From the NCBI GenBank assembly GCA_041660565.1, contig JBAZWC010000001.1, positions 238,481 through 302,480 of the forward strand: a stretch of DNA of 64,000 nucleotides, in the 5' to 3' direction. This document shows, piece by piece, positions 2,941-53,097 of this stretch; the first letter of the stretch is position 1, and each line of letters starts with the position of its first letter. This stretch comes from Patescibacteria group bacterium (lineage in GTDB: Bacteria > Patescibacteriota > UBA1384 > CAJBMM01). Below the pieces are notes generated by a model. That model was not told the DNA's origin. It was given only the letters and a program-made list of their open reading frames with translations, and ran no database searches. A program made the translations under genes and the position numbers.

Positions 2941-3126
2941 ATCCTTTCTTAACGACTTTAGTATACATTATTTTGTGTCTTAAAACACAAAAAAGCACTA
3001 AGCACTAAATTATAAATTCGAAACAAATTCAAAAATTGGCGCGGTGGGCTGGTTTTTATATAATTAGAATTTTGAATTTTCTTTACACTCAACAAATCTT
3101 TCATTAAGATTATATATAGAGGGCTT

Positions 3127-4026
3127 ATGACAAATAAAAAATTGATTATCTGGGGTGGCGTGATTGCCGCCATGTCTTGTATGGCGATAATATTATTTTT
3201 AGTTTCGGAGAACCTTAGTCAAGCATCGACAATAAAATTATCTGCTCCGGTAGATGGCACTCCAATTCCGGATGGTGTTTCTTCGGCTACTCCAACTGCG
3301 CTTGTTTCGTCATTACCTTCTTCAACGGCCAGTGTTGCTCCCACCGCAACTAGTTCTGCTACTACAACTGCTACACCTACAACGCGCCCGTCATCTACCG
3401 TATCGGCAAATCCCTCGGCTGGTGCCAGCGTTGCCCCTAGTCACTCCCCCTCTGCCGGCCCAAGCTCTGCCGTCAGTAGTAATCCGTCAGCTGGGGTAAC
3501 AACTTCTCCAACAGTATCAACGTCCACCTCTGCGCCCATCTCAACGCCACAACCGAAAACTACGGAACAGGTAGTGCTATCTACGCTCAAACTTCAAGCC
3601 GAACCGGTGGTGGCTACATCAGATCATCGATATAACATTGTTATACAATGCACCGTTCCAACCGGGGTTAGCTTCGTGACGTTTTTGGTAAACTCGGATA
3701 ATCCCATGACTATTCCGGCCACGCTTAACAACAATACCGCCACCGCTACTATCACCTCACCTCTAGAAAGCGGCAAACATCAAATTACGGTAGCGTTCAA
3801 AGATCCAACGAGTAATCAGGTGATGGAAATTAAGCGCGATTTCTTTGTCTCCCCTGTTCTTGCAGCCAGTACCTTGAACGGATCATCGGCTGTAACATCA
3901 CATTTTACCGATTTTATCCCACTTAAGTATATCTTTACTCTAATTGCGATGATTCTAATTACTACGGTTGCCACCTTTGTTATCTACCGAAAAGCGGCGG
4001 TAATCGAGACTAAAAAAACTAAATAG
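3127..4026 (+). CDS. membrane-anchored Ser/Thr/Pro/Ala-rich hypothetical protein
   Basis: N-terminal TM helix, long low-complexity S/T/P/A tract, C-terminal TM helix. Confidence 0.45.
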   Translation: MTNKKLIIWGGVIAAMSCMAIILFLVSENLSQASTIKLSAPVDGTPIPDGVSSATPTALVSSLPSSTASVAPTATSSATTTATPTTRPSSTVSANPSAGASVAPSHSPSAGPSSAVSSNPSAGVTTSPTVSTSTSAPISTPQPKTTEQVVLSTLKLQAEPVVATSDHRYNIVIQCTVPTGVSFVTFLVNSDNPMTIPATLNNNTATATITSPLESGKHQITVAFKDPTSNQVMEIKRDFFVSPVLAASTLNGSSAVTSHFTDFIPLKYIFTLIAMILITTVATFVIYRKAAVIETKKTK

Positions 4027-4032
4027 GACGCT

Positions 4033-5406
4033 ATGAGCTCACTGTATTGGCGACAATTTTTGTACTCAGTAGTGATTGTTATTTGTATTCCAGCAATATT
4101 AATTGCTAATTTGATTCTGCATAATAACAATTTCACCACGCTACTTAATCAGGAGCTGCAAAGCAAGGCCGAGCTAACCGCTCAAGCGCTAAGCACCACC
4201 GTAACCGATTCACTTAGCCAGCCAGATGTAATTAGCGCCAAAATTAGTGCCTTAATTAAAAACTCAGATATCAAAGAAATTACAGTATATAAATATAACA
4301 ATAACGCGTTTTCTGTGGTATCTACTACTAACCCGGAAAACGAGGTGAAGGTGCTAGACGCGCCATCATCAAACACCGCTTGGAATGAAAAACGCGCTAT
4401 AGCAACTCAGTTTGGCTCGGCAAACACCAATGATCACGTTTATACCGTAACCACCCCAATTTACGATGCCGATGGAAATGCTGCTGCGCTGTTGGTAAGC
4501 CAAATTTCGGTAGCAGACATAGACGCACTGGTAAAAAGTAACAACCAGCAAACCCTGTACTTCTTATTAGCAAGCATATTGGTAATATTTATTTTGCTTA
4601 TTAACCACTTTCATTTTGTCGGATACGCCAAGCTACTTTATGCTCTTAAAAATGTAAATCAACTAAAAGATCGGTTTCTTAACCGCACTACCATGGACCT
4701 GCAAGAGCCGTTAATGAATATCAAAAGTAGCTCCGAATCGTTTAATAAACTCTACTCGCAATCGGTTGATGCCAATGGGCTCAAAATGATCAGCGACATC
4801 AACGCCGAATCGGTCAAAATGCTAGAAGTGGTTAAAGAGCTACTAGATTTAAGTAAAATTGAACACAACCAAATAGAACTTCAGCGGCAGCCGATCAATC
4901 CAATGAAAATTTGTGCCGATGTAGTGGCAAAGCTTGCGCCGGTTACCATGGCAAAGCAAATAAATATCTCGTTAAATATCGATAAAACTCAGGGGCTTAT
5001 TTCGGTTGATCAAAGCAGACTAAGCCAAGAAATTTCAATGTTGCTTAATGTATTTATTGAGCATATGGAAAATGGAGAGATTAAGATTGCCTACGAGCAA
5101 ATCACCAAAAACCGCTGGTCGGTAACTATCTCTAGCGATACTTTTAGATATAAAGATGCAGCTAACGTATCTCAGACCGCAATTTCTAATCCTGCTGATC
5201 AGTCAGCTAACTTAACCGAATTTGGGGTAAGTTATTGGATTGTAGAGCAATTGACTCAATTAATGGGTGGGCATATTGAAACTCAGTTTAATCCCCCATC
5301 TCAATTGATCTTTAGATTGATTTATCCGGAAGTTAAAGTAGTTGAGTTCCCTAACTCAGCCGAAGCCGTCGCTCCCACTGCCACTACCTCCAATATTTAT
5401 GCATAG
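4033..5406 (+). CDS. sensor histidine kinase-like membrane protein with degenerate H-box (phospho-acceptor His apparently Met)
   Basis: 2 TM helices flanking a periplasmic-type domain; LLDLSKIEHNQIEL (HisKA-like); H-box position reads TTMDLQEPLMNI instead of sHELRTPL; degenerate G-box QLMGGHIE. Confidence 0.5.
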   Translation: MSSLYWRQFLYSVVIVICIPAILIANLILHNNNFTTLLNQELQSKAELTAQALSTTVTDSLSQPDVISAKISALIKNSDIKEITVYKYNNNAFSVVSTTNPENEVKVLDAPSSNTAWNEKRAIATQFGSANTNDHVYTVTTPIYDADGNAAALLVSQISVADIDALVKSNNQQTLYFLLASILVIFILLINHFHFVGYAKLLYALKNVNQLKDRFLNRTTMDLQEPLMNIKSSSESFNKLYSQSVDANGLKMISDINAESVKMLEVVKELLDLSKIEHNQIELQRQPINPMKICADVVAKLAPVTMAKQINISLNIDKTQGLISVDQSRLSQEISMLLNVFIEHMENGEIKIAYEQITKNRWSVTISSDTFRYKDAANVSQTAISNPADQSANLTEFGVSYWIVEQLTQLMGGHIETQFNPPSQLIFRLIYPEVKVVEFPNSAEAVAPTATTSNIYA

Positions 5407-5443
5407 GACGAGCTATACTACGAAATCCGTAGTCAAATACCTA

Positions 5444-5770
5444 TCAAAAACCATTCCACCTGAGTAATAATAAAAATAGTCCGATTCCTAATATTGTACC
5501 AAAAACTGGGAAAGTATATCGTGTCCATTTTTCTGGAAAAAAGCTGTCGAATACGTATCCTTTCGTGGCGCCATATTTTTTTGCCATACCGGTCAACGGG
5601 CACTTCATACCATTGCCAAAAAACACGATTCCTTCGATAGAAATTAAGCCGAGCGCAACATATAACGCTGGTCCGAATATTTTTGCGATACCACAATATA
5701 GAATGAAAAATACTGAGCCAGCCATGAAAATAAATATGATCGTATGTATTGTTTTGATAAGCGCAAGCAT
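5444..5770 (-). CDS. small integral membrane protein (DUF2784-like, CPLT motif)
   Basis: 108 aa, 3-4 hydrophobic helices, GMKCPLTGM motif; the overlapping 149-aa ORF in another frame runs into the tRNA and was rejected. Confidence 0.45.
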   Translation of the reverse strand: MLALIKTIHTIIFIFMAGSVFFILYCGIAKIFGPALYVALGLISIEGIVFFGNGMKCPLTGMAKKYGATKGYVFDSFFPEKWTRYTFPVFGTILGIGLFLLLLRWNGF

Positions 5771-5842
5771 TTAGCTGACCTCGTTGGCCTTTAGAATATA
5801 GTATTTTAGTACAACCGAATATTAAATTATTTAATACGTAAT

Positions 5843-5918
5843 TGGTGGACCTTAGGAGATTCGAACTCCTGACCTCTTCCATGCCATGGAAGCGCTCTAC
5901 CAGCTAAGCTAAAGGCCC
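5843..5918 (-). tRNA. tRNA-Ala (anticodon GGC)
   Basis: Reverse complement GGGCCTTTAGCTTAGCTGGTAGAGCGCTTCCATGGCATGGAAGAGGTCAGGAGTTCGAATCTCCTAAGGTCCACCA: 7-bp acceptor stem with G3:U70, anticodon loop AUGGCAU, GTTCGAATC T-loop, encoded CCA. Confidence 0.9.
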
Positions 5919-5997
5919 ACTAACATTATTATACACAAAAAAGCATGAATTACCAGATTATTTTGATATAAATCTTTGATCCAGCACGGAATGACGA

Positions 5998-8025
5998 TTA
6001 AGGCAGCCGAGTAATGCGGCGGCGGATTAGCCATCCGGCAATTGAGATTAAGATTAACGTAGCTCCACCACCAATTGAAAGATTGGTTGGGGTGAGTAGT
6101 TTTTGGGCTTGAGTTTTAGTTTCAGTTGGAACCACAACAGGAGCTTCTTTAAATGACGCTGTAACAGCCGTGGATGGGTTTGAAGTGTTATTGTGAATGT
6201 CAGTAGCTTGTAAGGTGAATTGGTAGTCTGTGGCTAATACGAGTTTAGGGTGATTTGCTAGTACAACATTGTAGCTTAATGTTGATTTGGTTAGTTTGAC
6301 TGTCTCGATGTTAGTACCGGAAGCGTTATTAATATTTAGTATGTATTCAGATAAGTCTGTATCGATATTCGCAGTCCAAGATAGTTTAATTATTGATTTA
6401 GAATAGCTAGTTACAACCAGATTAACCGGAATACCCGGAGCTAGGTTATCTACTGAAGCAAAACTAACCGTATTAGAGCTTTTTGATTCAGAGGTACCTT
6501 TGTATGCTCTAACGAAGTAATAAAATGTAGTACCAACATCTGCTTTAGTATCGATATACTGTAATACTGTTTTTTCAGTTTTAGCTACGTTTACAAAATC
6601 TTTAGTATTATTAGTAGTACTACGGTAAACCATATAACCGTTAATACTAGATGATGTAGATGCCTTCCATTTTAGAGTAGTATTTCCGCCTTGATCTCCG
6701 GGAAAATCTTCTGCAGTTAAACTAGACGGTACATTAATAGATGATACCGGAGCAGCTGGTGCAGCACCAGTACCAGCAGATACACCAACTTGAGGTGCGG
6801 GGGTATTAGCTACTACAACTTGGGGCGCAGCAGTTGTGCTTGTACCCGTGTTGCCAGTACCGGTATTACCGGTGTTGTTACCGGAACTAGGCGTTGGCGT
6901 TGGAGTAGAATCACCGCCCCCAACCGCATTAACCGTTAGTGTTGCCTCGTTGGAGGTTACGTTACCAACGGAATTAGTAACGGTACATTTATATTTGCTA
7001 CTACTGTCCCCTGTTGCCAATGTCCCGGTGGTGTAACTCGAACTAGTTGCGCCAGAGATATTGCTACCATTTTTCTTCCACTGATACGATAGCGGTGCTG
7101 TACCAGAAGCCGCAACGGTAAATGTAGCAGTTTGACCGGCACTGACGGTGATATTAGATGGTTGAGTTGTGATTGACGGGGCGGTATCGCTAGGTGGTGG
7201 TGCATTAACCGTTAAAGTTGCTTCGTTAGAAGTAGCACTACCGTAAGCGTTAGTGACGGTACATTTATATTTACTACCACTATCTGATGTAGATAAGGCT
7301 CCTGTTGTATATGACGCACTGGTTGCGCCGGAAACATTACTCCCGTTTTTCTGCCATTGATATGACAGTGGCGCGGTACCGGAAGCCGCAACGGTAAATG
7401 TTGCCGTCTGCCCGGCCGTCACAGTAGCGCTAGATGGTTGAGTCGTGATGGCTGGCGCAGAACCAGTGATTGTGGATGATATGGTGACATATGAACCACC
7501 TGTTGTGGTTGGCGGCTGTTCTGTCGATGGAATTTGATACAGAGTGCTTCCATCGCTTGCTTTGGTTATAGTAATTCGCACTTGACCGTATGTGCCATAA
7601 GCAGTGGCTTCTACTCTTACAATAGCTAGCCCATTATAATTATCTCCGGAATAATTGCCAGCATTGCTAGTAACCACACAATGATTGCGGTCAACTCCCC
7701 CAATATTAACTTTACTAACAACTACATCAGAATCTGTTACTTCAATGGCAAAGTATTTTGGAGGACTATCTGCTGGGTTTTGACTGCCAAGGGCATTAAT
7801 CTTACCGAAAGTAGTAATCGTTCCGCCAATATCATACTTCCAGCCGGTTACTTTTACGGCAGCGGTGATATTATCCGAATTTTTATATGTCCATTGAACC
7901 GCACATGAAGATGTAGAGTCTGCGCGAGCTAAACGATTTTGGGACAGCGAAAAACTAAGCATCCCAACCATTATCAATACAACTGTCAGTGCCCAAACAT
8001 AACGAGGTTTTAATCTTATTCTCAT
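5998..8025 (-). CDS. secreted/cell-surface protein with tandem Ig-like repeats and C-terminal membrane anchor
   Basis: signal peptide/TM at N-term; two ~90-aa near-identical repeats (APSITTQPSNITVSAGQTATFTVAASGTAPLSYQWKKNGSN...); FN3-like region; C-term LILISIAGWLIRRR anchor. Confidence 0.6.
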   Translation of the reverse strand: MRIRLKPRYVWALTVVLIMVGMLSFSLSQNRLARADSTSSCAVQWTYKNSDNITAAVKVTGWKYDIGGTITTFGKINALGSQNPADSPPKYFAIEVTDSDVVVSKVNIGGVDRNHCVVTSNAGNYSGDNYNGLAIVRVEATAYGTYGQVRITITKASDGSTLYQIPSTEQPPTTTGGSYVTISSTITGSAPAITTQPSSATVTAGQTATFTVAASGTAPLSYQWQKNGSNVSGATSASYTTGALSTSDSGSKYKCTVTNAYGSATSNEATLTVNAPPPSDTAPSITTQPSNITVSAGQTATFTVAASGTAPLSYQWKKNGSNISGATSSSYTTGTLATGDSSSKYKCTVTNSVGNVTSNEATLTVNAVGGGDSTPTPTPSSGNNTGNTGTGNTGTSTTAAPQVVVANTPAPQVGVSAGTGAAPAAPVSSINVPSSLTAEDFPGDQGGNTTLKWKASTSSSINGYMVYRSTTNNTKDFVNVAKTEKTVLQYIDTKADVGTTFYYFVRAYKGTSESKSSNTVSFASVDNLAPGIPVNLVVTSYSKSIIKLSWTANIDTDLSEYILNINNASGTNIETVKLTKSTLSYNVVLANHPKLVLATDYQFTLQATDIHNNTSNPSTAVTASFKEAPVVVPTETKTQAQKLLTPTNLSIGGGATLILISIAGWLIRRRITRLP
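6938..7455. repeat. tandem ~270-bp DNA repeat (2 copies) encoding the Ig-like repeats
   Basis: 6938-7180 and 7208-7455 are near-identical by eye. Confidence 0.7.
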
Positions 8026-8202
8026 ATATTAATATTGATGTATAACTGAATAGAACACAATAAAGATTCTAAGGTCGGGGTAAAAAACATTAGTGGTCAA
8101 TCAAAACTATTTCTTATCAATTATATGTAGATTTTGGTCTTTGAGAATTTACCCAGCAGCGTTTGTGGATGATAATCAAAGTTTTTGAAACTTTTGAACA
8201 CA

Positions 8203-11200
8203 TTACCTACGAACTTTTTTTCGTCGATTGGAGTAGATTATAAAACCGAGAACGAAAACTAAAGCGATAAAACCGAATGAGACGTATTGCCAAATTCTGG
8301 TTTTTTGTTTCTCTATTTCAATATTTCCATTGTCAACGCTCATATTAAAATCATAGGTTTTGCTTTCGTCACCCTCTAGCTCTAAATTACTTGCCAGTTT
8401 AATAGATGCGTGAGCAAGAACGGTATGAGATCCTTGTCCCAGAATCTCACTAGCGTTGGCCAACCTGCACGACCAATTACCTTCGTCATCGGCAAGTACT
8501 TGAGTGGTATAAGGATCGGAATGGATGGTAAGAAATACAATTGTGTTCGGATCTGAGGTGCCATCAATCAAAAGACTGTCATTTTTAGCTGTAATATCAG
8601 TAATGGATGGAGCTGAAGGTCTAATATCAATAATTTGTGTTGATTTGCTCTTGTTTCCTGCTTTATCATAAACGGTCAAAGTAACAGTGTACCTTCCGGG
8701 ATTCTTATAAACATGATTAACCTTTGATAGATTAGATGTGCTTCCATCTCCAAAATTCCATTCTAAAAGGGTAATTAATATATTGTCTGTGGAACTGCTT
8801 GCATCAAATGTAACTGATTTGCTAGTAACAAGCGTCAACGGATCTTGTAGGATACCTAGGGCGGCTATGGGAGATGTAGTGTCTGGCCTGGTTGAGCTTG
8901 TGGTTGATGTGCTAGATGAAGGTGATGGACTCGAAGTTGTTGTGGACGCTGAGCTACTAGATGATGATGAGGTTGGTGTTGATGTAGGCGTTGCGGTTGG
9001 TGTTGATGTTGCGGTGCTAGGTGTCGGAGTTGAGCTTGGCTCCGGTGTTGGGCTGTCGGATGATGGTGTAGCTTGTGTTGCAGCAGTAGCCGAAACGTAG
9101 TTGGAATTTTCTACGTTATCACCATTTACCGAATAAACATAATATGTGTAATCCGTTGAAGCCGAAAGTCCGGTATCAGAATAAGTTAAATCATTTGCAG
9201 AATGAACTAAGGTGCCAGAACCTGACAAGCCATTTCGATAAACGTTAAACTTACTTTGAGCTCCGCCAGATGTCCAATCAACTTGAATCGAACTTGCAGA
9301 TTGAGCGGTGGCGGTAGCAGAGCCGGGATTTGACGCACTAGTGTATTTGGCCGCAGTGGTAGAATATGCGGTTTCGGTGCTGTCGGCATTACGTGCTTTG
9401 ACTTCTAAAATGTATTGAGTGTTGGCAGAGAGCCCGGTATTAACAATTCCCAATGCTCCACCCCAAGTGGTGTAATCCTGCCAGACTGCGGAAGCACCCA
9501 GAGTACCATTTGCTTGGATATACTGTGTCGTTGATGTTTCGTAGATAGCGTACGTTGTGCCAGCCGGATTCGAGTTTTGATTAATAATTGCTGTTAAAGA
9601 AGTCGCGGATGTTAAGGTGACTGTTGGCGCAGACGGAACGTTAGCAAGAGTATATTTGGACGCGGTTGTGGAAAAGCTTGTTTCGGTGTCATTGCTATTT
9701 TTAGCTTTTACCTCAAATGTATATTGGACATTGGGAGATAAACCGGTATTCGTTACACCCGAAGCTCCACCCCATGTAGTATAATCCTGCCAAACCGCCG
9801 ACGCGCCGAGTGATCCATTTGCTTGAATATACTGTGTCGTTGATGTTTCGTAGATAGCGTAGGTTGTTCCGGCTGGATTAGAATTTTGATTGACGGTGAT
9901 TTTTAGTGAGGTGGCAGCCGGTGTATTCACTGTTGGCGCAGACGGTACGTTGGCTAAGGTGTAAAATGCAACACATGCCCCATATGCGGAACCAGATATG
10001 TTTGTGGCATAAGGTTTGTATGAATATTGCGTATTTACGCTTAGACTTGATTGTGAGAGCGAAAAAGCTCCAGTGCCGTAGTCACCGTTTTGTGATAAGT
10101 CGTTAATAGCTCCAGTACAATCTGATGATTGATAGTATTTAAAACCTCTAACAGTAGCATTTTGAGTGCCAACATCCTCAATTGTCCCATGCAGAGAAGC
10201 GGAGGTAGCCGTAATATTATCTGCAGCCTGAGCAGTCACAGTTGGGGGTGTTAACGCCACTTCCGCTCCAACACTTGTTGACGGCTCAGGCAAGGAGTAT
10301 TGGCGTAGTCTAAAATCGTCAAGATACCCGGATGTTTGTACAGCACTGTCAGTAGTAAATGTAATTTTATTAATTGCTCCTACAGCTCGTGAGATATCGT
10401 CCTGTCTAACAATTTCGTTATAATTTGTGTCATATACAACAAAATTATATTTATCCAAATCTGTGTTAAATTCTAGAGTTACCAGATACCAAGTGTCTGC
10501 AGTGTATGTTACCGCAGTGTTGTGGAATGAACCATCCCAGTAATGAAAATATGTAGCACCAAGACCAGCCACTGCCCCTATTGTATCTCCGCTATAAAGA
10601 TATGCGTCAAATCCTCCACCTGTGGTATTACTCCTTCGCATCCATGCTCCAATAACTCCCGTAGTCTTCGGAACAAATGAAGAAGTGTAAAACTGAGTTC
10701 CGGCGATTGCAGATGTGTCAGATTGTCTGATAGATCTACTTCCGTGTCGTATTGGCGTGTCTACTACTGTCACTGTGCCCCCAGAACCAGCGCCCGTCCA
10801 GAAAGGAGCTACTCTACTAAGAGCAGACACAAAGTCTGTCTCTATTGTTAATCCTGTATACCACGTATCAGTTCCGTTAGGTGAACCCGCAAAATAAGTC
10901 CATATTTGATTATTTGTAAGATTAAAACTGTTTCGGTAAATATCATCAGTTAGCACTACCGGCGTGTCTTGGTCTGAATCATTCCATGCAGCTGCTGCTC
11001 CAAAATTGATCGCATTTCTTATGAATTCTCTGCTGGCTGGATAAAATGTTGGGCTGGTATCTCTATAAAGTTCAATCTGTGCCTTATCTGACGATACGGT
11101 ATAGTGTGGCACAAGCATATAATAATAATCCCCATACTTAAATGGAAAAATACAAAACCGACCACCGGTAAAAATCGGATTGTTAGCATCTTTTGTCCAA

Positions 11201-12267
11201 TGAATTAGGTCAGTTGAGGTGGCAAGACCAACCGCTCTGGTTCCAGAAATTGTACTATACCACATATAATAGAGCGAACCTACTTTCATAACCCCCCAAG
11301 GGTCTAAAGCGGCATCATCCCATTGCCCTGATGTTCCTGATAAAACAGGGTTTGAAGCATATTTAGTCCAACTTACTCCATCTGATGAAGTGGCCAAACC
11401 GATTTTGTTAGGAGTTCCGCCTCGGTACAACATATACCATACCGTATCTTCTTTCCATACCATTGGCACACCTACATTAGTAGTTTCCCATGCAACTGTC
11501 GGGCTTAATATGGGGTTGTGTTCCGAGTCCACTGTCCAACTCAACCCATCCGAAGAAGTGGCATGCAAAGCTGTATCCCAACTGTAATACATGTGGTATG
11601 TGTCGCCATCTTTAAAAACTGACGAAAACCCATCTTTACTAGTAGTGTTTAAAACAGGGTTACTGGCGTATTCACCCCAGAATGCGGAGTCTACTCCGTC
11701 TAAAGACCCGGTATTACGAGATTCAAAACCATCAAAGCCGCCAGCTTCAAACGTTTCTAATCCATCGCCTGCATCGCTAGCGTTAGCGTTACCATAATAC
11801 ATGTAAATTGTTTTTGTTGTAGAGGCGGGGATACTTGGAACTTTAGACCAGATGATTGCAGTTTCTCCGACTGAATCATAATAATCAATCCAATAATCGA
11901 TTAGTGATACGGCGTCGGCATCGGAAAATCGGATATCCGAGCCATCAGAATTCGCTTTTGTGAAATCAAAGTTTGTATCATTTAGAGTAACTTTAACTTG
12001 ATAGTTCGATAAGACATTAGCATTCCCAGAATTATCAACTGTAATTTCTTTGCGATATTGCCAATCGCTATCATACCATGAAGCTGCTTGAACCTGTTTT
12101 TCCGGGATACTAAAACTGCTAAAAATGAATGAACCGGCGCAAAAAAGTATCACAGCCGTTCTGATGAAATGTGAGTGACTATATTTATAGTGGCTAATTA
12201 GTCTGCCGAATTTTTCAAAGTAAGCATTGCCCATTACTGTCCCTCGCTTAATACCAGATACAAACAA
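8203..12267 (-). CDS. giant (1354 aa) multidomain surface protein: DUF2341-like, GH32/43-type beta-propeller blades, LamG-like, 2x FN3, S/T/P linker, PKD domain, C-terminal TM anchor
   Basis: WYDSDWQYRKEITVDN (DUF2341-like start); repeated SSDGxSWT / NPVL / NPIF blade motifs; two near-identical FN3 repeats; NFGDGSTS...YTVTLTVYD PKD-like; C-term hydrophobic anchor + RRKKVRR. Confidence 0.6.
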   Translation of the reverse strand: MFVSGIKRGTVMGNAYFEKFGRLISHYKYSHSHFIRTAVILFCAGSFIFSSFSIPEKQVQAASWYDSDWQYRKEITVDNSGNANVLSNYQVKVTLNDTNFDFTKANSDGSDIRFSDADAVSLIDYWIDYYDSVGETAIIWSKVPSIPASTTKTIYMYYGNANASDAGDGLETFEAGGFDGFESRNTGSLDGVDSAFWGEYASNPVLNTTSKDGFSSVFKDGDTYHMYYSWDTALHATSSDGLSWTVDSEHNPILSPTVAWETTNVGVPMVWKEDTVWYMLYRGGTPNKIGLATSSDGVSWTKYASNPVLSGTSGQWDDAALDPWGVMKVGSLYYMWYSTISGTRAVGLATSTDLIHWTKDANNPIFTGGRFCIFPFKYGDYYYMLVPHYTVSSDKAQIELYRDTSPTFYPASREFIRNAINFGAAAAWNDSDQDTPVVLTDDIYRNSFNLTNNQIWTYFAGSPNGTDTWYTGLTIETDFVSALSRVAPFWTGAGSGGTVTVVDTPIRHGSRSIRQSDTSAIAGTQFYTSSFVPKTTGVIGAWMRRSNTTGGGFDAYLYSGDTIGAVAGLGATYFHYWDGSFHNTAVTYTADTWYLVTLEFNTDLDKYNFVVYDTNYNEIVRQDDISRAVGAINKITFTTDSAVQTSGYLDDFRLRQYSLPEPSTSVGAEVALTPPTVTAQAADNITATSASLHGTIEDVGTQNATVRGFKYYQSSDCTGAINDLSQNGDYGTGAFSLSQSSLSVNTQYSYKPYATNISGSAYGACVAFYTLANVPSAPTVNTPAATSLKITVNQNSNPAGTTYAIYETSTTQYIQANGSLGASAVWQDYTTWGGASGVTNTGLSPNVQYTFEVKAKNSNDTETSFSTTASKYTLANVPSAPTVTLTSATSLTAIINQNSNPAGTTYAIYETSTTQYIQANGTLGASAVWQDYTTWGGALGIVNTGLSANTQYILEVKARNADSTETAYSTTAAKYTSASNPGSATATAQSASSIQVDWTSGGAQSKFNVYRNGLSGSGTLVHSANDLTYSDTGLSASTDYTYYVYSVNGDNVENSNYVSATAATQATPSSDSPTPEPSSTPTPSTATSTPTATPTSTPTSSSSSSSASTTTSSPSPSSSTSTTSSTRPDTTSPIAALGILQDPLTLVTSKSVTFDASSSTDNILITLLEWNFGDGSTSNLSKVNHVYKNPGRYTVTLTVYDKAGNKSKSTQIIDIRPSAPSITDITAKNDSLLIDGTSDPNTIVFLTIHSDPYTTQVLADDEGNWSCRLANASEILGQGSHTVLAHASIKLASNLELEGDESKTYDFNMSVDNGNIEIEKQKTRIWQYVSFGFIALVFVLGFIIYSNRRKKVRR
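9395..10020. repeat. tandem ~310-bp DNA repeat (2 copies) encoding the FN3 repeats
   Basis: 9410-9575 vs 9720-9885 and following segments are near-identical. Confidence 0.7.
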
Positions 12268-12332
12268 ATCGTATCGCTCGTTAACAAGCCATTATAATTA
12301 GTTTAATGCTCTTCATTATCAATGTCAAAAAT

Positions 12333-12398
12333 TTACTTCTTGGATACCTTTTGCAGGTGTAGGTCTTTGAGTAGTTCGGGAGATATTGATATCATCAT
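12333..12398 (-). pseudogene. relic copy of aspS 3' end (micro-ORF MMISISPELLKDLHLQKVSKK*)
   Basis: 25-bp identity to aspS 3' end (aggtctttgagtagttcgggagata) then divergence that is mostly synonymous; lies just downstream of the APH gene. Confidence 0.6.
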
Positions 12399-12420
12399 CC
12401 AATTGCCTGTTCCAAAGTAA

Positions 12421-13335
12421 TTATAACCCGAGTCCTGAGCGACCTTGGTTTAACCAATATTCATTTTCTGCGCTAGCGTTTCCGTAAATATCTCGCTCTC
12501 TCACCGCTCCAATAATATGCATGGCATGTGCTAAATCCACAAAAAGCGGGAATAGTTCCTTTTCGCGGTCGGTTAAAGGATTGTGCCGTCCATATTCCTC
12601 TAAAATATAAGCATGATCGTAGTCCGCGAGTAAATTACAGGCTATCACCGCTAGTTCGAGTAATCTTGGGTAGTAATTTGCGCAAGCAAAATCGATAACA
12701 TAAATACCCCCAGTGCTGTTTCTAATCACGTTCGTTGTTATTATGTCCCCATGAACGAAACAATGAGGAAGTGTCTCTGATTTAATCTCTATAAATATTT
12801 TGACCAGTGGCTCGATTTTTGATTTTTCCGCGGTAGAAAGATAATTTTTTACAATCTGATATTGATCAGCGGCGTTAACAATCGCCCATTCATCATAAAC
12901 ATAGGTAGGCTTAAAGTTAGTTCCATTTATTTTGGCTGCTTCGCTCAGAATAACTTTTGCTTCACTTTTCGTAGGTTTTTGCTTTAGCTCGTAAAAAGTT
13001 TTTCCGTCAACAAATTCAAAAACTGATAAATTTCTGCCATCAATGATATTCAGACTAGGCGGATACATCTTTGGCGTTTTTATATCAGCTGTGCACGCCT
13101 TTTGGATAATCTCTACGTATCGACGGCATTCATTAATGTCTCGATATAATCCGAATATCTTGACGAAATAAGTGCCAATGGTCGTCTCGAGAATGTAGTT
13201 GTCATCCTCGTAGCCAATTTCGACCTTTGAGAATCTTGTTAATTTTCCAAAATGATAATCTTGTACGACATGCTCGAAAAAGCCTACCTTATCTCCGCTA
13301 AGACATTTTTTATCACGATAATTTAATTCTCTCAT
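12421..13335 (-). CDS. phosphotransferase enzyme family protein (APH/choline-kinase-like)
   Basis: HGDIITTNVI (Brenner HxDxxxxN) and VIDFACANY (DFG-like) motifs; 304 aa. Confidence 0.7.
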   Translation of the reverse strand: MRELNYRDKKCLSGDKVGFFEHVVQDYHFGKLTRFSKVEIGYEDDNYILETTIGTYFVKIFGLYRDINECRRYVEIIQKACTADIKTPKMYPPSLNIIDGRNLSVFEFVDGKTFYELKQKPTKSEAKVILSEAAKINGTNFKPTYVYDEWAIVNAADQYQIVKNYLSTAEKSKIEPLVKIFIEIKSETLPHCFVHGDIITTNVIRNSTGGIYVIDFACANYYPRLLELAVIACNLLADYDHAYILEEYGRHNPLTDREKELFPLFVDLAHAMHIIGAVRERDIYGNASAENEYWLNQGRSGLGL

Positions 13336-13367
13336 CGTCTAACTATGCCTGCCAATTTTTGAGGTAA

Positions 13368-14792
13368 TTATTTTTTCTCTATTTTTTGCAAATGGAGGTC
13401 TTTGAGTAGTTCGGGAGATAGTTCTGCGGGGGCGTTCATCATCAGATCTCGCCCATCACCGGTTTTTGGAAACGCAATTACTTCTCTAATACTTAAACCG
13501 GTAATTGCCATAATTAAACGATCAATCCCAGGCGCCATGCCGCCATGAGGCGGGCATCCATATGAAAACGCCTCTAGCATGTGACCAAAACGTTCTTTTA
13601 TTTGAGTGTCGGACAACTCTAAAGCTTTGAATATCGCCTCTTGCTGATCAGCGCGATGGATACGAATTGATCCTGACCCTAACTCTAATCCGTTGGCCAC
13701 TAAGTCGTAGGAATTCGCTTTGATTTTAAGCAACTTTTGAATATCAACTTTCTCACCCTTGCGTACTTTTTCCATTAACTCATCGTTTTCTGGGGTTGGC
13801 TGCCAGCTGGTGAATGGATGATGAGCCGAGGTAAGTTTGCCTTCTTTGGTAAGCTCAAACAACGGGAAATCTACCACAAATGCCAACGCCACCTCGTCCC
13901 AGTTAGATTTGTCTTGGCGTAGGTCTGGTTTATCGGAATGGTACTTAGTCATCGCCTCATCGTAAGACAAGCGTTTGAAGGGTTTGAACGTCAATTTTTT
14001 CTCCGGGCAAACTGATTCAAGAGTTGTAGTATAGAGTTCTTCGATCATTTGCAGAATTTCTTCTTGATCTACAAAGCTCATTTCAATATCCAATTGAGTA
14101 AATTCCGGTTGTCGGTCTTCTCGCGGATCTTCATCTCGCATGCATTTTGGAAACTGAAAATACTTTTCAAATCCAGCCACCATTAGCAGCTGCTTGAACT
14201 GTTGTGGAGATTGTGGGAGCGCGTAACCTTTACCCGGGTGCACACGTGACGGCACAATGTATTCGCGCGCGCCTTCGGGCGTGTCTTTGGTTAAGAACGG
14301 GGTTTCTACTTCAATAAATCCGCGCTCGGTTAACCAGTTTCGCATATTTAGCATCAGTTGCTGACGTAATTGCATCCGTTTTAGCATGCTGGGGCGGCGC
14401 AAATCGAGATAGCGGTAACGTAAGCGTACTTCCTCATCAATTTTAATATTGTCATCAATTTCAAACGGCGGGGTTTGTGATGAGTTTAGAACCGTAATTT
14501 CGGCGCTTTGCATTTCTACGGTTCCGGTTGGTAATTGTGGATTAGCCATTTTATCACCGCGTTTAACAATTTCTCCGGTAATTTGCAACACCCATTCGCG
14601 CCCAACGTTCTGTGATTGCAGTTTTTCGACTAATTTAGGCTCGGCTACCACCACTTGTAATAAACCGGTTCTGTCACGCATATCTAAAAAGATAATTCGC
14701 CCGTGATCGCGGCGGGTTTGCACCCATCCGGACACAGTAACGGTTTTTCCAACGTGGCTAACGGTGTCTAGGTTATAAATTCGGTCTTTCAT
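13368..14792 (-). CDS. aspS: aspartyl-tRNA synthetase, compact form without GAD insertion
   Basis: N-terminal OB fold; HSDKPDLR; FVVDFPLFE; HHPFTSWQ; GGMAPGIDRLIMAITGLSIREVIAFPKT. Confidence 0.85.
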   Translation of the reverse strand: MKDRIYNLDTVSHVGKTVTVSGWVQTRRDHGRIIFLDMRDRTGLLQVVVAEPKLVEKLQSQNVGREWVLQITGEIVKRGDKMANPQLPTGTVEMQSAEITVLNSSQTPPFEIDDNIKIDEEVRLRYRYLDLRRPSMLKRMQLRQQLMLNMRNWLTERGFIEVETPFLTKDTPEGAREYIVPSRVHPGKGYALPQSPQQFKQLLMVAGFEKYFQFPKCMRDEDPREDRQPEFTQLDIEMSFVDQEEILQMIEELYTTTLESVCPEKKLTFKPFKRLSYDEAMTKYHSDKPDLRQDKSNWDEVALAFVVDFPLFELTKEGKLTSAHHPFTSWQPTPENDELMEKVRKGEKVDIQKLLKIKANSYDLVANGLELGSGSIRIHRADQQEAIFKALELSDTQIKERFGHMLEAFSYGCPPHGGMAPGIDRLIMAITGLSIREVIAFPKTGDGRDLMMNAPAELSPELLKDLHLQKIEKK

Positions 14793-14795
14793 TTC

Positions 14796-17066
14796 TTACC
14801 TTTGTGTAATTTGATATTTTTCTATTAATTTTGATTCAATTTTGGCCATTTCGGTATTTACCTGATCCTCGATCAATGTTTTTTCCGGATCTTGGAATAA
14901 TAAGTGAAATGATAGTGACTGTTCGCCTGATTTCGATTTATCCACATAACGATCAAATAGAATAATCGGCAGGAGTAATGGTGTTTGATTTTGAATAAAG
15001 CGAGATATTTCACCGATGGCGTAGCGCGTGTTTACGGTAAACGATAAGTCTCGTTTTACCACCGGAGTTTTGGCGTATGGTTGGCAAGATATGTTATTCG
15101 GAATTAGTGAGACGATTTTTTCAAAATTCAGTTCGAATCCGTATAGCGTAACGGTAGATTGACGGGTTTTTATGTGACCAATTTTAGTGTCGCGATACAA
15201 AATCGTGGCAGAGTCTGGCGTAGCTTGCTCAAACTTGATCTCGGTGATATTCAAATGTAGCTGGTGCAGTAAAACAGCCAAGAACTGTTTAAGATCTGCC
15301 TCACTGGTTTGGAATACGGCGCTAAGATACAACGGCTGTTGTGGTAATTTTTCCGCCGTCTTGGTGGAGTGGTACACCGTGCCAAATTCAAAAATATTAA
15401 AGTTGGTGTGGCCATTCTTATATTGATAACCGGCCAAATCAAACAGTTGCGGCAGTAATGATGTACGCAGGAACTTTAGATCACCAATTGGGTTTTGAAT
15501 TTCAACCGACAATTCATCCTTCTTCGCAACCATTACCGCGGTTTCCACCTCATTAGCTATAATGATGGCGGCATTACGCATTTTATTAAGCGCGGCTTCT
15601 CTATCGTTTACTGATCTCGCTGTTTTAACCAGTGGCAGACTAATATCAATTTTGTTGTATCCGTATATTCGGGCGATGTCTTCGGTAACGTCGGCCAAAG
15701 CGTGAACATCGCTACGCCACCATGGCGGTGTAACAGATTTATTTGACATTTGATAATGAAGCAAAGATAGAATGTTGATCATTTCATTTTCAGATAAGTT
15801 GGTGCCGAGTATTTGATTTACTTGTTTAGCGTCAAACGGGATTGTGATCAACTTTGAGTCGGTATCCCCCACTATCTGACAAAATGATACTTTACCATCG
15901 GACTCTTTTAATATTAATTCTAGTACCGAGTTAAATCCGTTTATGACCGTAGATTTAGTTAGCCCGCGTTCAAACCTGGCACTGGCATCGGTGCGCAAAC
16001 CCAAACGACGTGAGGTTTGTCTAACTGATACGGGCGAAAATTGGCCGGCGGTTAAAATGACCGAACTATCATCGTTTTCCGATTTTGTTTCTGAACCGCC
16101 AATGATACCGGCGATATCTAATGCTTGTTTGTTACTAGAAATTACCAAATCGCTGCTTGATAGTTGATAAGATTTTCCATTTAATACGGTAATCTTTTCA
16201 GAATCCTTGGCAAATTCAACGCTAATTTGGTTTTTGGTAATACATTTGGCTGAAAAAACGTGTGTTGGCATACCTTCTTTGAGCATAATGTAGTTGGTAA
16301 TGTCGGTAACCAAATTGATTGGATTTACGCCGTGATCGGTCAAAAACTGGGTGAGCCACGCTGGGGAGTGGTGTTTACGCATATTATCAATTTTAGCCAC
16401 GCAGAACGTGCTACAGTGGCTTGCAGAGGCCACAGAGACGTGAATATTCTCAGCATTTACTGTTTTTGGCGTATTTGGGATGATATATGGCGTTTTGAGC
16501 CCAAAACAGGCATCTAAATCGGCTTCTAAGCCGCGATATGATAGCAGTTCGGGGCGATGCCCGGTACCTTTATCATCGGTTTCAATAATCACTTGAGTTG
16601 GTATTATAGATTCAGCCGGCACGCCTAATTTTGTATCCTCTGGAAATATATGAATTCCTTTAACCTCAACATTTTCCAAACCCAGCTCGTCTGGCCCGCA
16701 CAACATCCCATTTGATAAGACGCCGCGGATGGTTGACGATTTAATTTGCATTACAGTTTCGCTGCCGTCAGTTAGCGATAACACTTCGGCGCCAACCAGG
16801 GCAACCGGAACAATTTGGCCAACCTGAACATTCGGTGCTCCGGTGACGATATCTAGCATTTCTCCACCCAGATCGATACTACAAATAACCAATCGGTCAG
16901 CATTGGGATGTTTTTGGATATCGCAAATTTTTCCGGTAACCACGCCTTTGGCTCGAATACCGCTAGACTGAACTCCCTCAACCTCTTGAATGTGATCACT
17001 AATAATTTCGGCAAGCTTGCTTGCTGAGGTGTTGTATTTGTCTAAATATTTATTGATGAATCTCAT
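14796..17066 (-). CDS. pheT: phenylalanyl-tRNA synthetase beta subunit
   Basis: N-terminal tRNA-binding domain (KGVVTGKICDIQKHPNADRLVICSIDLG), B3/4 and B5 regions, 756 aa, directly downstream of pheS. Confidence 0.85.
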   Translation of the reverse strand: MRFINKYLDKYNTSASKLAEIISDHIQEVEGVQSSGIRAKGVVTGKICDIQKHPNADRLVICSIDLGGEMLDIVTGAPNVQVGQIVPVALVGAEVLSLTDGSETVMQIKSSTIRGVLSNGMLCGPDELGLENVEVKGIHIFPEDTKLGVPAESIIPTQVIIETDDKGTGHRPELLSYRGLEADLDACFGLKTPYIIPNTPKTVNAENIHVSVASASHCSTFCVAKIDNMRKHHSPAWLTQFLTDHGVNPINLVTDITNYIMLKEGMPTHVFSAKCITKNQISVEFAKDSEKITVLNGKSYQLSSSDLVISSNKQALDIAGIIGGSETKSENDDSSVILTAGQFSPVSVRQTSRRLGLRTDASARFERGLTKSTVINGFNSVLELILKESDGKVSFCQIVGDTDSKLITIPFDAKQVNQILGTNLSENEMINILSLLHYQMSNKSVTPPWWRSDVHALADVTEDIARIYGYNKIDISLPLVKTARSVNDREAALNKMRNAAIIIANEVETAVMVAKKDELSVEIQNPIGDLKFLRTSLLPQLFDLAGYQYKNGHTNFNIFEFGTVYHSTKTAEKLPQQPLYLSAVFQTSEADLKQFLAVLLHQLHLNITEIKFEQATPDSATILYRDTKIGHIKTRQSTVTLYGFELNFEKIVSLIPNNISCQPYAKTPVVKRDLSFTVNTRYAIGEISRFIQNQTPLLLPIILFDRYVDKSKSGEQSLSFHLLFQDPEKTLIEDQVNTEMAKIESKLIEKYQITQR

Positions 17067-17123
17067 TTTCCGCTTTCAAAATTGGATTGATTGGCACAAT
17101 TGGACTAATTGGAATCTTTTATA

Positions 17124-18113
17124 TTAATATAAACCTTGTTCTAAAAATCTGGGGTCGTTTTTGGTTAACTCACGAATGTCGGTAATGCCGTACTTTGCCA
17201 TGCAAAGTCGCTCTACACCCACCCCAAAGGCAATCCCACGGTAAATTTTCGGATCTAAACCACCATTGGCAATAATTTCGGGATGAGACATGCCACAGCC
17301 TAGAAGCTCCAACCAACCTTTGTTGCCGCAAGACTTACAACCCTTGCCCGCACAATGTTTGCAGGCGATGTCTATTTCGGCGCCCGGTTCAACAAATGGA
17401 AAATAGCCGGGTCGAAAACGAGTTTTAGTGTCTTCACCAAATAGTTTTTTAGTGGTGTGGAGAAGTACGCCACGTAAATCGGCAAAAGATAACTTATCCG
17501 TAACCGCAAAAATATCAAATTGGTGAAATGCGGACAGATGAGTAGAATCGTCTGCCTCGGCTCTAAACACCCTTCCGGCTTGCATCACCGCAAATGGCGG
17601 TTTTAGCTGAGCCAATACGCGTTTTTGAAAAGCGGTGGTTTGGGTACGCAAAACGTCTTTATCAACTGTCCAAAATGTGTCTTGCATATCACGTGCTGGA
17701 TGATCTTTGGGTACACGGAGAAAATCAAAGTTATCAAATTCTAGCTCAATATCGGGCGTTTTGAACTCGCTAAATCCTAGTTCACCAAAAATATCATACA
17801 AAGTATGAATCATCGCTTGCACCGGGTGCTGATGACCATGCGCATTAAGTTGCAGCGGAGATGTTAGATCAATCGAATTGGATTGTTTGTTTGAGTTAGT
17901 CAACAATGATTCAAGCTTAATTTTGGTTGCATTAGCAACGCTACCAATCTCTTTACGCAAATCACCCTGCAAAGACGGGATTTCTTTAACCAAAGCATTG
18001 TACAGCCCTTTTCGGCCAAGATACTTGGTGCTTAAAACATCAAATTCAGTACCAGATTTAATATCTGATTCACAGGTAATGATTAATTTTTCGAAGTCTT
18101 TAGTTGATATCAT
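17124..18113 (-). CDS. pheS: phenylalanyl-tRNA synthetase alpha subunit
   Basis: FRPGYFPFVEPGAEIDIAC class II signature; 329 aa. Confidence 0.9.
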   Translation of the reverse strand: MISTKDFEKLIITCESDIKSGTEFDVLSTKYLGRKGLYNALVKEIPSLQGDLRKEIGSVANATKIKLESLLTNSNKQSNSIDLTSPLQLNAHGHQHPVQAMIHTLYDIFGELGFSEFKTPDIELEFDNFDFLRVPKDHPARDMQDTFWTVDKDVLRTQTTAFQKRVLAQLKPPFAVMQAGRVFRAEADDSTHLSAFHQFDIFAVTDKLSFADLRGVLLHTTKKLFGEDTKTRFRPGYFPFVEPGAEIDIACKHCAGKGCKSCGNKGWLELLGCGMSHPEIIANGGLDPKIYRGIAFGVGVERLCMAKYGITDIRELTKNDPRFLEQGLY

Positions 18114-19227: not shown

Positions 19228-19236
19228 AATTCCTTT

Positions 19237-19312
19237 GTCATTCCGGGCTTGACCCGGAATCTATATACAAAGTCTTTTATAGACTGGATTCCCGCCTTCG
19301 CGGGAATGACAG
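19237..19312. repeat. two adjacent intergenic palindromic elements (type A GTCATTCCGGGCTTGACCCGGAATCTATATA; type B ATTCCCGCcttcGCGGGAATGACA)
   Basis: perfect 8-bp stems; copies of both types recur across the window (see findings). Confidence 0.75.
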
Positions 19313-23349: not shown

Positions 23350-23503
23350 GTGTGGTTGTCCTTAATACTAACTAATAAAATATTAACATATTCATTGCGA
23401 TTATGCAAGACTTTTGTCAGTGTAAACGTCACGAGCATTGTAGGGGCGGACTCGAATGTCCGTCCGCCCGACACTTTGTGAAGAAATGATGTGGAATATA
23501 TTT

Positions 23504-23537
23504 CTATATAGATTCCGGATCAAGCCCGGAATGACAG
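23504..23537. repeat. palindromic element type A (CTATATAGATTCCGGatcaagCCCGGAATGACA)
   Basis: inverted-orientation copy of the 19237 element, directly downstream of the map stop. Confidence 0.7.
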
Positions 23538-25777: not shown

Positions 25778-25905
25778 TGCTAAAAACTCAAGATCGCATC
25801 GTCAACTCTAACGAATACGAGAGATCCTGTATCGTTCAGTAACTTGGGGATCTCTCGCCGTTCGACGCCGCTCATGGTGTCGGGTGGAGCGCCCACGTCA
25901 GTTAT

Positions 25906-25938
25906 CTAAATAGATTCCGGGTCAAGCCCGGAATGACA
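25906..25938. repeat. palindromic element type A followed by AT-rich AAATTTCAAATTGTAAATT-type motif (to ~25977)
   Basis: TAGATTCCGGGtcaagCCCGGAATGACAG between secY and the LysM gene. Confidence 0.7.
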
Positions 25939-26031
25939 GCTTCTAAAAAATCATTTCAAATTTCAAATTGTAAATTAGATGCTTCGCATCGAAATCACTC
26001 ACACAGTGCTCGTGATTATCAAATTGGTACT

Positions 26032-40017: not shown

Positions 40018-40050
40018 CTCCGCAGACGCGCGCCGTTTGCGGAGATGTTT
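40018..40050 (+). terminator. rho-independent terminator (ctccgca...tgcggag + T tract)
   Basis: 7-bp GC stem followed by atgtttt; overlaps the -35 of the next promoter. Confidence 0.6.
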
Positions 40051-40054
40051 TATA

Positions 40055-40082
40055 TTGACAAATTACATAATAATCCTATACT
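40055..40082 (+). promoter_or_regulatory. consensus promoter TTGACA-N16-TATACT
   Basis: ttgacaaattacataataatcctatact; RBS aggggaggtaagg before ATG 40128. Confidence 0.6.
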
Positions 40083-40563: not shown

Positions 40564-40600
40564 TCTCCGCACGCGCCAGTCGCCTGCGGAGATGTTTTTT
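40564..40600 (+). terminator. rho-independent terminator (tctccgca...tgcggaga + TTTTTT)
   Basis: 8-bp stem, 13-nt loop, T6 tract. Confidence 0.65.
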
Positions 40601-40601
40601 A

Positions 40602-40629
40602 TTGACAAAACGCAACATTACTCTATAAT
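40602..40629 (+). promoter_or_regulatory. perfect-consensus promoter TTGACA-N16-TATAAT
   Basis: ttgacaaaacgcaacattactctataat. Confidence 0.65.
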
Positions 40630-41287: not shown

Positions 41288-41330
41288 CCTCCGCGACGGG
41301 CAACCGTTTCGGAGGGTATTTTATTTATAT
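41288..41330 (+). terminator. rho-independent terminator (ccctccg...cggaggg + tattttattt)
   Basis: third member of the same terminator family at the end of the GC-rich island. Confidence 0.6.
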
Positions 41331-41357
41331 AGATTCCGGATCTAGTCCGGAATGACA
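41324..41357. repeat. palindromic element type A (ATAGATTCCGGAtctagTCCGGAATGACAC)
   Basis: marks the right border of the GC-rich island. Confidence 0.7.
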
Positions 41358-41424
41358 CAAAAAAAGTCCGTGTTACGCTCGAACAAAAAATCCGTCACCC
41401 GTCATCTGTTTTCCATTATCCGCT

Positions 41425-42069: not shown

Positions 42070-42160
42070 ACAATTATTATAATCTGTCTCGGACAGATTA
42101 CAATAAAAATTCGAAATTCAAAGCACCAAGCACTAAATAAATTTGAAAAAAGTTCTTCTT

Positions 42161-42192
42161 GTCATTCCGGGCTTGACCCGGAATCTATATAG
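42161..42192. repeat. palindromic element type A (GTCATTCCGGGCTTGACCCGGAATCTATATAG)
   Basis: identical to the 19237 copy. Confidence 0.75.
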
Positions 42193-42211
42193 AAGAACTC
42201 TTTCATATACT

Positions 42212-42287
42212 GGATCCCGGATACTCCTTACAACCTTGCGATTGAAGTCGTTAGTTTCTATCGAAACAATCAAGTCCGGGATGACAG
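42212..42287. repeat. ~76-nt structured element type C (GGATCCCGGATACTCC ... GTTTCtatcGAAAC ... CAAGTCCGGGATGACA)
   Basis: long-range inverted ends plus internal 5-bp hairpins; second copy at 63905-63986 with compensatory changes. Confidence 0.6.
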
Positions 42288-50579: not shown

Positions 50580-51035
50580 CACATTTCTCCCTTTGTTATC
50601 GAAACTATATTATTTATATATATTAGATTTGGGTGATAATACGCATCACAGTTTGTCATTTCGACTCCCTCCGGGCGTAGTCTACGGGCAGAGCCTCGAG
50701 CGTTGTCTCGAGGGTGGAGAAATCTTCATAAAGAGTTCTCCTCGGTTCCGTTCTCTGTCCTCTGTCATCTGTTTTCCGAATTTACACAAAACGGCCGGTT
50801 CTGCTTGGATAGCAGAAACAGCCTGCTTAATGTCAGGACTTAAGCCGAAATTATTACCATGAGGCTCCGACGTTTGGCTAATCTATATTTAGGCTATCAA
50901 AAGTTTGATAGCTTGTCAACCCCCTGGCAACGAGGGGTTGCCAAAATTTTAAATTTTAAATTTTAAATTTGAAATTGGTCGAATTTTTGTTTTTAGATAG
51001 TCTTTCACCCGGATTGTCATTCCGGGCTCGACCCG

Positions 51036-51120
51036 GAATCTATATAAATAGAACATCCATACGCAGTTCAAATTATAAATTTCAAAATGTAAATTCACCC
51101 ACCCGCCTTGCTCTTTACTC
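51036..51120. repeat. composite element: type A palindrome + AACATCCATACGCAGT + AT-rich AAATTTCAAAATGTAAATT
   Basis: near-identical composite at 52266-52348. Confidence 0.7.
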
Positions 51121-51481: not shown

Positions 51482-51505
51482 CCTCGCGCCCATCACCATC
51501 CACCA

Positions 51506-51548: not shown

Positions 51549-51556
51549 TTTATCTT

Positions 51557-53094: not shown

Positions 53095-53097
53095 GAT

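Follow-up and report, generated by a model that had tools for sequence, protein, structure and literature searches.

A candidate insertion of a kinase gene at the 3′ end of aspS in a metagenome-assembled Patescibacteria genome

When the prophages 21 and e14 enter the icd gene of Escherichia coli, the incoming element brings an alternative icd 3′ end, which leaves icd whole and, compared with the displaced end, is changed mainly at synonymous sites. The integration of both takes place within icd (PMC12803456). The tyrosine integrases of streptococcal ICEs (integrative and conjugative elements) and IMEs (integrative and mobilizable elements) target the 3′ ends of lysS, rplL, rpsI, guaA and rpmG, and the resulting direct repeats of 12–54 bp contain the end of the gene; decayed elements, though no single-gene ones, are among those described in that study (PMC4701971). 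In the tycheposons of Prochlorococcus, repeated integration builds an island in which partial copies of the target are scattered and integrase-less cargo flanked by attachment (att) sites persists (10.1101/2020.12.28.424599). Nothing specific was found in the literature on aspS as an integration site. A candidate locus of this type was analysed in a window of 64,000 nt, that is, the whole stretch of DNA under study, from a 516-kb contig of a metagenome-assembled genome (MAG) of a Patescibacteria group bacterium; the repeat results refer to the whole window and the domain results to the window open reading frames (ORFs) scanned. Downstream of aspS, the final 53 nt of the gene with its stop codon occurred a second time, and the two copies bracketed exactly one gene, which encodes a kinase of the APH fold. 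Insertion into the aspS 3′ end by an element that carried its own gene end appeared to be the best available explanation, with a rough probability of 0.55.

The features of the locus are given below.

13368..14792, minus strand: aspS, aspartyl-tRNA synthetase (AspRS), 474 aa, last gene of the pheS-pheT-aspS block and putative insertion target
13368..13420, minus strand: repeat copy 1, the working aspS 3′ end, attL-like (repeat search, statistics); identical core 13396-13420, diverged tail and stop 13368-13395 (...LHLQKIEKK and stop)
13336..13367, minus strand: spacer of 32 nt from the aspS stop to the kinase start (sequence, signal scan)
12421..13335, minus strand: kinase gene, 304 aa, APH/eukaryotic-like kinase fold, the single gene between the repeat copies
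12386..12420, minus strand: 35 nt from the kinase stop to the second core, the would-be element-side arm (similarity tests)
12333..12385, minus strand: repeat copy 2, the relic aspS 3′ end, attR-like (repeat search, statistics); identical core 12361-12385, tail and stop 12333-12360 (...LHLQKVSKK and stop)

The 53-nt direct repeat (12333-12385 and 13368-13420) was identical at 43/53 positions (81%) with a spacing of 1,035 nt, and the aspS end was the sole duplicated gene 3′ end in the repeat scan. The first 25 nt of the repeat, which hold seven full codons, were the same in both copies. This core, TATCTCCCGAACTACTCAAAGACCT on the minus strand, had two occurrences in the window with up to three mismatches allowed, and 0 were expected according to 100 shuffles. 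The readings in the aspS frame were LSPELLKDLHLQKIEKK followed by the stop for aspS and ISPELLKDLHLQKVSKK followed by the stop for the relic. After the core, eight of the nine codons were changed, six of them synonymously and two by replacement (I to V and E to S), and the TAA stop remained in register. All ten nucleotide differences lay inside the last 28 nt (p = 6.7e-4), and the proportion of changed codons was 0/7 in the core versus 8/9 in the tail (Fisher p = 0.0014). The probability that at least seven of the nine residues and the stop are retained under 10 random substitutions was 7e-5. The synonymous sites of the tail were saturated (6 differences over approximately 5.3 sites), and the replacement-site difference was approximately 0.18. 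The original prediction, made from the sequence alone, had described a duplicated aspS 3′ end on both sides of the kinase gene, a 25-bp identical core and a remainder that differed mainly at synonymous sites. All of this was confirmed; the similarity was reproduced at the alignment level, where the best ungapped match of 43/53 compared with a shuffle maximum of 30.

The boundaries of the repeat were sharp. Upstream of the core, no significant similarity between the copies was detected by permutation tests (p = 0.10–0.43) apart from one shifted 8-mer, GATGATGA, with a marginal, uncorrected p of approximately 0.016. Downstream of the stop codons the copies had no similarity (p = 0.098), and the 35-nt arm at 12386..12420 showed no significant similarity to aspS. 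An upstream extension of the relic suggested by tblastn (GTGNWMM against GDGRDLMM) was rejected, with a permutation p of 0.10–0.15 and a p of 0.43 at the nucleotide level. The nucleotides of the core are not generally conserved, as the same region uses different codons in the aspS genes of three relatives.

The two tails encode nearly the same peptide and keep frame and stop despite saturated synonymous sites, which indicates that each belonged to a working aspS gene during their divergence. Judged from this pattern, the two ends must have diverged as functional genes in separate, related lineages, and a crossover within the 25-nt core would then have joined them. Because both tails share SPELLKDLHLQK and the same length, which no AspRS in the databases does, the two lineages that supplied them appear to be nearer to each other than either is to any sequenced relative. 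The relic core is still identical at 25/25 positions, which by our own calculation limits the neutral divergence since the event to at most about 11% (95% bound).

In the mechanism proposed for this arrangement, a single reciprocal crossover inside the 25-nt core would have led to the Campbell-type integration of a circular DNA into the aspS 3′ end. The core would be identical because the exchange took place there. The incoming DNA would have brought its own last nine aspS codons, so that aspS stayed intact, and the former aspS end would have been displaced 1 kb downstream, where it would lie as an unused relic before the promoter of the next gene. The product would have the order aspS body, core, incoming tail, incoming DNA, core, resident tail and resident downstream DNA, and the 1,035-nt unit would be composed of the core, tail 1, the 32-nt spacer, the kinase gene and the 35 nt. 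The exchange may have been catalysed by a site-specific recombinase, which would be encoded elsewhere or have been lost since, or by RecA by way of the 25 identical nucleotides. If the identical cores recombined again, the insert would be excised, and aspS would remain at full length with the end ...VSKK. As read from the sequence, the layout would be the attL/attR one of an element integrated at a gene's 3′ end, and it fits attL = B-O-P′ and attR = P-O-B′. Replacement by a linear fragment cannot easily give both the duplication and the identical core. The mechanism offers a precise 25-nt site and three predicted junctions for read and genome searches, namely the empty site (aspS body, core, CTACACCTGCAAAAGGTATCCAAGAAGTAA, promoter), the circle (kinase 3′ end, 35 nt, core, CTCCATTTGCAAAAAATAGAGAAAAAATAA, spacer, kinase start) and the present arrangement.

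The surroundings of aspS were compared with those in relatives. The closest AspRS among 5.8 billion proteins was 66% identical, and the AspRS protein cluster had a single member. In three relatives with an AspRS identity of 61–65%, the pheS-pheT-aspS order, which is common to the window and the relatives, was followed within 0–3 nt by a pseudouridine synthase gene and then by an S11 peptidase gene; in one of these relatives the series went on with an aminotransferase gene and ddl, and then with the genes of a Mur ligase and a hydrolase. The pseudouridine synthase, S11 peptidase and aminotransferase genes were absent from the window. The kinase gene adjoined aspS in none of the three relatives, and aspS was located within 3 kb of a kinase homologue at 0 of approximately 85 kinase-family loci. 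The six closest kinase homologues looked up (50–57% identity) had different neighbours at each locus. Furthermore, a comparable flanking repeat was found at none of 83 kinase-family loci tested (z = 17.6 for the window; the next best value, 8.2, was from an intergenic repeat), and approximately 90 loci checked over several scans gave no comparable flanking duplication. Since the relatives, the kinase-family loci and the closest homologues all differ in context, the adjacency of kinase gene and aspS seems to be unique to this genome, and the kinase family appears to change its context freely. The earlier claim that the kinase gene is an acquired insertion was thereby strengthened on the side of gene context; composition, discussed below, was uninformative in this regard.

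The intergenic repeat with z = 8.2, at the locus L028, is an AT-rich sequence of 49 nt ending in ATG, with one copy approximately 115–160 nt upstream of the kinase homologue and the other approximately 335–385 nt downstream. A duplication of a promoter or 5′ region may account for it, and it is not a coding relic. Two 163-aa ORFs that flank a kinase homologue at the locus L091 were considered as a duplication and rejected, as they are unrelated.

The locus shares two properties with site-specific integrative elements: direct repeats with an identical core enclose the insert, and the replacement end has orthologue-like differences and leaves a full-length target ORF. Several observations weigh against such an origin. 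An integrase within the element is lacking, the insert being the kinase gene only, and neither there nor in the window ORFs covered by the domain scans was a gene for an integrase, a transposase or a different recombinase detected. With one cargo gene, a 1-kb element is not capable of moving by itself; it would have lost all but its cargo through decay, have been moved in trans, or have entered by RecA acting at the 25 identical nucleotides. The searches yielded neither an empty site nor a circular junction, and the unit had no further copy. With a degenerate DNA pattern for SPELLKDLHLQK, genome and metagenome collections returned 0 matches, and a shorter SPELLKDLHLQK pattern gave 0 matches in the viral collection. 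The codon usage and GC content of the kinase gene were within the host range, with no compositional sign of foreign origin; with this ordinary composition, the donor would have been compositionally similar or the event not very recent. The whole aspS-ddl interval is rearranged relative to the relatives, and therefore more than one event took place at the locus. Finally, the lysine codons of the relic tail are AAG in 3/3 cases; the working tail has AAA three times, and the AAA to AAG ratio in aspS overall is 30:5. This runs opposite to what is predicted if the relic is the native end, so either end may be the native one, though an argument from three codons is weak evidence. Thus, of the original prediction of an integrating element with its own copy of the target 3′ end, the layout of core, tail and edges was borne out; an integrase was not found, and the AAG codons speak, weakly, against the relic as the displaced original.

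The lysine codons fit a serial integration at an aspS hot spot, and they also fit the downstream block as the foreign part. In a serial integration, an older and larger island, comprising the relic tail and the surface-protein genes among others, would have supplied the tail ...VSKK, and the kinase unit, arriving later at the same core, would have supplied ...IEKK. Both tails would then be foreign, and the native end, the distal att site and the rluB and S11 genes would have been lost. The 10.4-kb interval from aspS to ddl lacks synteny with the relatives and includes genes for lineage-specific surface proteins as well as a tRNA gene, the three AAG codons of the relic tail are atypical for the host, and the stacking of elements at one att site, with the older ones pushed inward, is documented (10.1101/2020.12.28.424599). 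However, a third copy of the core or tail, as expected at the distal limit of such an island, was not present in the window according to a mismatch search and sensitive blastn and tblastn searches, the scanned window ORFs contained no integrase remnant, and the scheme needs extra events plus a deletion. Such a history was considered rather unlikely as a separate account; the single integration and this serial variant are jointly probable. An inverse assignment, regarded as plainly unlikely, takes the kinase gene and the ...IEKK end as native. The foreign part would be the block downstream, consisting of a fragment of a relative's aspS end and the surface-protein genes, received via transformation and homology-facilitated illegitimate recombination. 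The working tail is host-like in its codons and the relic is not, the composition of the kinase gene is ordinary, and the downstream block is lineage-specific, all of which agree with this assignment. It leaves unexplained why 25 identical nucleotides stand beside 28 that are saturated at synonymous sites and why the fragment starts exactly at the core, and the kinase-aspS adjacency was seen nowhere else.

Coding-type divergence of the tails would likewise be produced by functional paralogues, so the relic could be the remnant of a second aspS paralogue past the kinase gene, mostly deleted, whose 25-nt core was homogenised by gene conversion. This was rated as highly improbable: the AspRS cluster is single-member, the relatives examined have one aspS at the locus, and a duplicate is unexpected in so small a genome. 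Moreover, a decaying pseudogene should not retain a perfect core, frame and stop beside dissimilar sequence, and the end of the deletion and the conversion tract must coincide. Chance similarity or a two-strain assembly chimera is hardly credible as the source of the pattern. An exact repeat of 25 nt in a MAG is near the small k-mer sizes of assemblers, which makes a chimera conceivable, but a misjoin at a shared k-mer cannot create a second copy past the kinase gene. A second assembler also gave the same 7.5 kb, as a Logan contig of run SRR18595301 (8,740 nt) was identical over window positions 9832-17335 with both copies included; this agreement excludes an assembler-specific artefact only, since the assembly may stem from the MAG's own reads. 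With regard to chance, neither the 43 matches, beyond any shuffle, nor a core with 0 expected occurrences is accounted for.

Integration into the aspS end was also compared with the described systems and with other mobile units. The event is of a well-known kind, represented here by a small example that lacks an integrase, in a phylum that has been little studied. The insert resembles phage 21 and e14 in its place, the 3′ part of a housekeeping gene that is essential. In those cases, prophages of tens of kb that have an integrase beside the att site occupy icd of E. coli, whereas the present insert, of 1 kb, consists of one kinase gene, with no recombinase found, in the aspS gene of a Patescibacteria MAG. 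The streptococcal ICEs and IMEs have an aminoacyl-tRNA synthetase gene among their targets, and the repeat of 53 nt is comparable with theirs, but they carry an integrase together with conjugation or mobilisation modules and none is present here. Att-flanked cargo that remains without element genes is a likeness to the tycheposon islands, which differ in that tRNA genes are their targets and their recombinase family is defined; the present target codes for a protein, and a recombinase was not found. Integron gene cassettes are similar in being approximately 1 kb long with a single ORF behind a host promoter and a recombination site at one end, and differ in that the site in this locus mimics coding sequence. 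An integron cassette was rejected, as a folded site like attC was missing, the 181 nt past the kinase stop folding no better than shuffles (z = 0.29), and no IntI or attI was found in the scanned ORFs. An insertion sequence or transposon was likewise rejected, with no transposase and terminal inverted repeats not above chance, and so was a target-site duplication, since the repeat is 53 nt long and diverged in a coding pattern.

The kinase protein scored 61.6 bits with the Pfam model PF01636 (APH) against a cut-off of 23.2, and this was the sole family model passed. In addition to exceeding the gathering threshold, the protein has the catalytic HxD...N and DF(G) motifs of the family; K59, H195-G-D197, N202 and D215-F216 were invariant in an alignment of 45 kinase sequences. 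The AlphaFold2 model had a predicted local distance difference test (pLDDT) score of 94. The best solved structure was the type II homoserine kinase 2ppq (template modelling score, TM, 0.75; 16% identity), and the next structural matches were YtaA, the amicoumacin kinase AmiN, APH(9), YihE, the N-acetylhexosamine kinase NahK and LicA. The kinase thus resembles type II homoserine kinase and other APH-fold kinases in its fold and catalytic motifs, whereas its identity to solved structures was 12–16% throughout and its scores with all NCBIfam equivalog models were far under the cut-offs. Type II homoserine kinase (ThrB alt) models gave 52.9 against 255.9 (TIGR00938) and 49.2 against 271 (NF003558), and the APH(3′) model NF033068 gave 16.4 bits against 205. 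The possible role as an antibiotic kinase raised in the original prediction was therefore not supported: only the broad Pfam APH model was passed, and in the proposed check of resistance-family membership the protein fell short of every antibiotic-resistance family threshold. From its sequence and model, the protein is best described as a probably active small-molecule kinase with an unassigned substrate, and a salvage role in a genome-reduced symbiont is plausible.

Homologues of the kinase occurred across numerous lineages of Patescibacteria, among DPANN archaea (Nanoarchaeota, Aenigmatarchaeota, Woesearchaeota, Micrarchaeota and Iainarchaeum) and in a few Firmicutes MAGs, the majority being from Patescibacteria and DPANN. 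This distribution suggests that the family has been exchanged among ultra-small symbionts across two domains. No homologues were found on viral contigs or phages, and plasmid matches were only 25–28% identical and annotated as 'phosphotransferase'. No conserved neighbourhood that would hint at a substrate was present in 82 loci, the best being a Nudix-like gene at 6 loci and a short-chain dehydrogenase gene at 5.

The expression of the kinase gene was considered according to a signal scan. The spacer at 13336..13367 contained no terminator-like site and one weak promoter-like match (9/12), and no terminator was found after the kinase gene. Because the kinase gene starts 32 nt past the aspS stop and no terminator is predicted in between, its transcription is probably part of that of the pheS-pheT-aspS operon. 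A promoter-like sequence, TTGACA-17-TAAACT, begins 5 nt past the relic stop, ahead of the surface-protein gene. It is probably the promoter of this next gene, and its position is consistent with its having once stood directly behind an aspS stop codon.

In Patescibacteria, whose genomes are very small and which are dependent on hosts, descriptions of mobile elements and of the ways in which genes are gained are poor. At the sequence level, the locus offers a clean footprint of how one gene came to stand behind an essential operon that stayed undamaged. It suggests that aspS may be a site of integration in this lineage and marks the kinase gene as accessory rather than core; no new mechanism is revealed, and the practical value is modest. 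A further possibility, judged very unlikely, is that the 1,035-nt unit is a complete and still-mobile minimal cassette with one cargo gene and an att site that mimics the aspS end, moved in trans by a recombinase from another place in the genome or from a different element. If true, it would mean an exchange of single salvage genes resembling that of integron cassettes, with the genes docked behind essential operons, in genome-reduced Patescibacteria.

The genes and intervals around the locus are listed below.

17124-18113, minus strand: pheS, first in the pheS-pheT-aspS block
14796-17066, minus strand: pheT, in the same block
12300..12328, minus strand: promoter-like site TTGACA-17-TAAACT, 10/12 (consensus match only)
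8203..12267, minus strand: large surface-protein gene, 1,354 aa (DUF2341, PKD and fn3 domains), directly downstream of the relic
5998-8025, minus strand: Ig-domain surface-protein gene, 675 aa
5843-5918, minus strand: tRNA-Ala(GGC), inside the ddl-aspS interval
2941..13367, no strand: ddl-aspS interval, 10.4 kb, non-syntenic with the relatives
19-2940: hydrolase, Mur ligase and ddl genes, in the order kept in one relative

Within the 10.4-kb interval lie the kinase gene and the relic, both surface-protein genes, tRNA-Ala(GGC) and two further ORFs, one of them sensor-kinase-like and the other unknown. No tRNA gene was found at the equivalent place in the aspS regions of the three relatives, and tRNA-Ala(GGC) could be another integration target. 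Both surface-protein genes have internal tandem domain repeats, of approximately 300 nt (9335-9943) and approximately 257 nt (6926-7458), which are 72–74% identical.

The aspS product matched the Pfam tRNA-synt_2 model (1.3e-108) and the anticodon-binding OB fold, and it scored 613 bits with the NCBIfam aspartate--tRNA ligase model against a cut-off of 443. It is of the bacterial type yet has only 474 aa, and the 590-position NCBIfam profile was matched in two stretches, the best of which ended at position 296. This suggests, at the sequence level, an AspRS without an internal segment of the bacterial enzyme. The AspRS of the relatives listed were likewise short (458–485 aa).

Intergenic hairpin repeats of approximately 35–45 nt (TGTCATTCCGGGCTTGACCCGGAATCTATATA) were dispersed over the window in both orientations, and none adjoins the aspS insertion. 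They resemble repetitive extragenic palindromic (REP) elements or terminators.

19235-19270, 23503-23537, 25905-25939, 41324-41358, 42159-42194, 51014-51049, 52101-52136, 52264-52299: copies of the TGTCATTCCGGGCTTGACCCGGAATCTATATA hairpin
5963-5997: weak copy of the same hairpin
19272-19311, 52139-52178: second hairpin type

A cluster at 52339-63470 resembles defence or restriction-modification systems and encodes a PD-(D/E)XK nuclease, a 938-aa AAA/SMC-like ATPase, an N6/N4 DNA methylase, an SNF2 helicase and a ResIII helicase with a TnsA-like endonuclease domain. Intergenic direct repeats of 55–70 nt with 75–91% identity were located at 40018-40080 and 40565-40627, at 51505-51559 and 52044-52098, and at 42217-42286 and 63916-63985. 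The pair at 40018-40080 and 40565-40627 contains a hairpin followed by a TTGACA promoter-like box.

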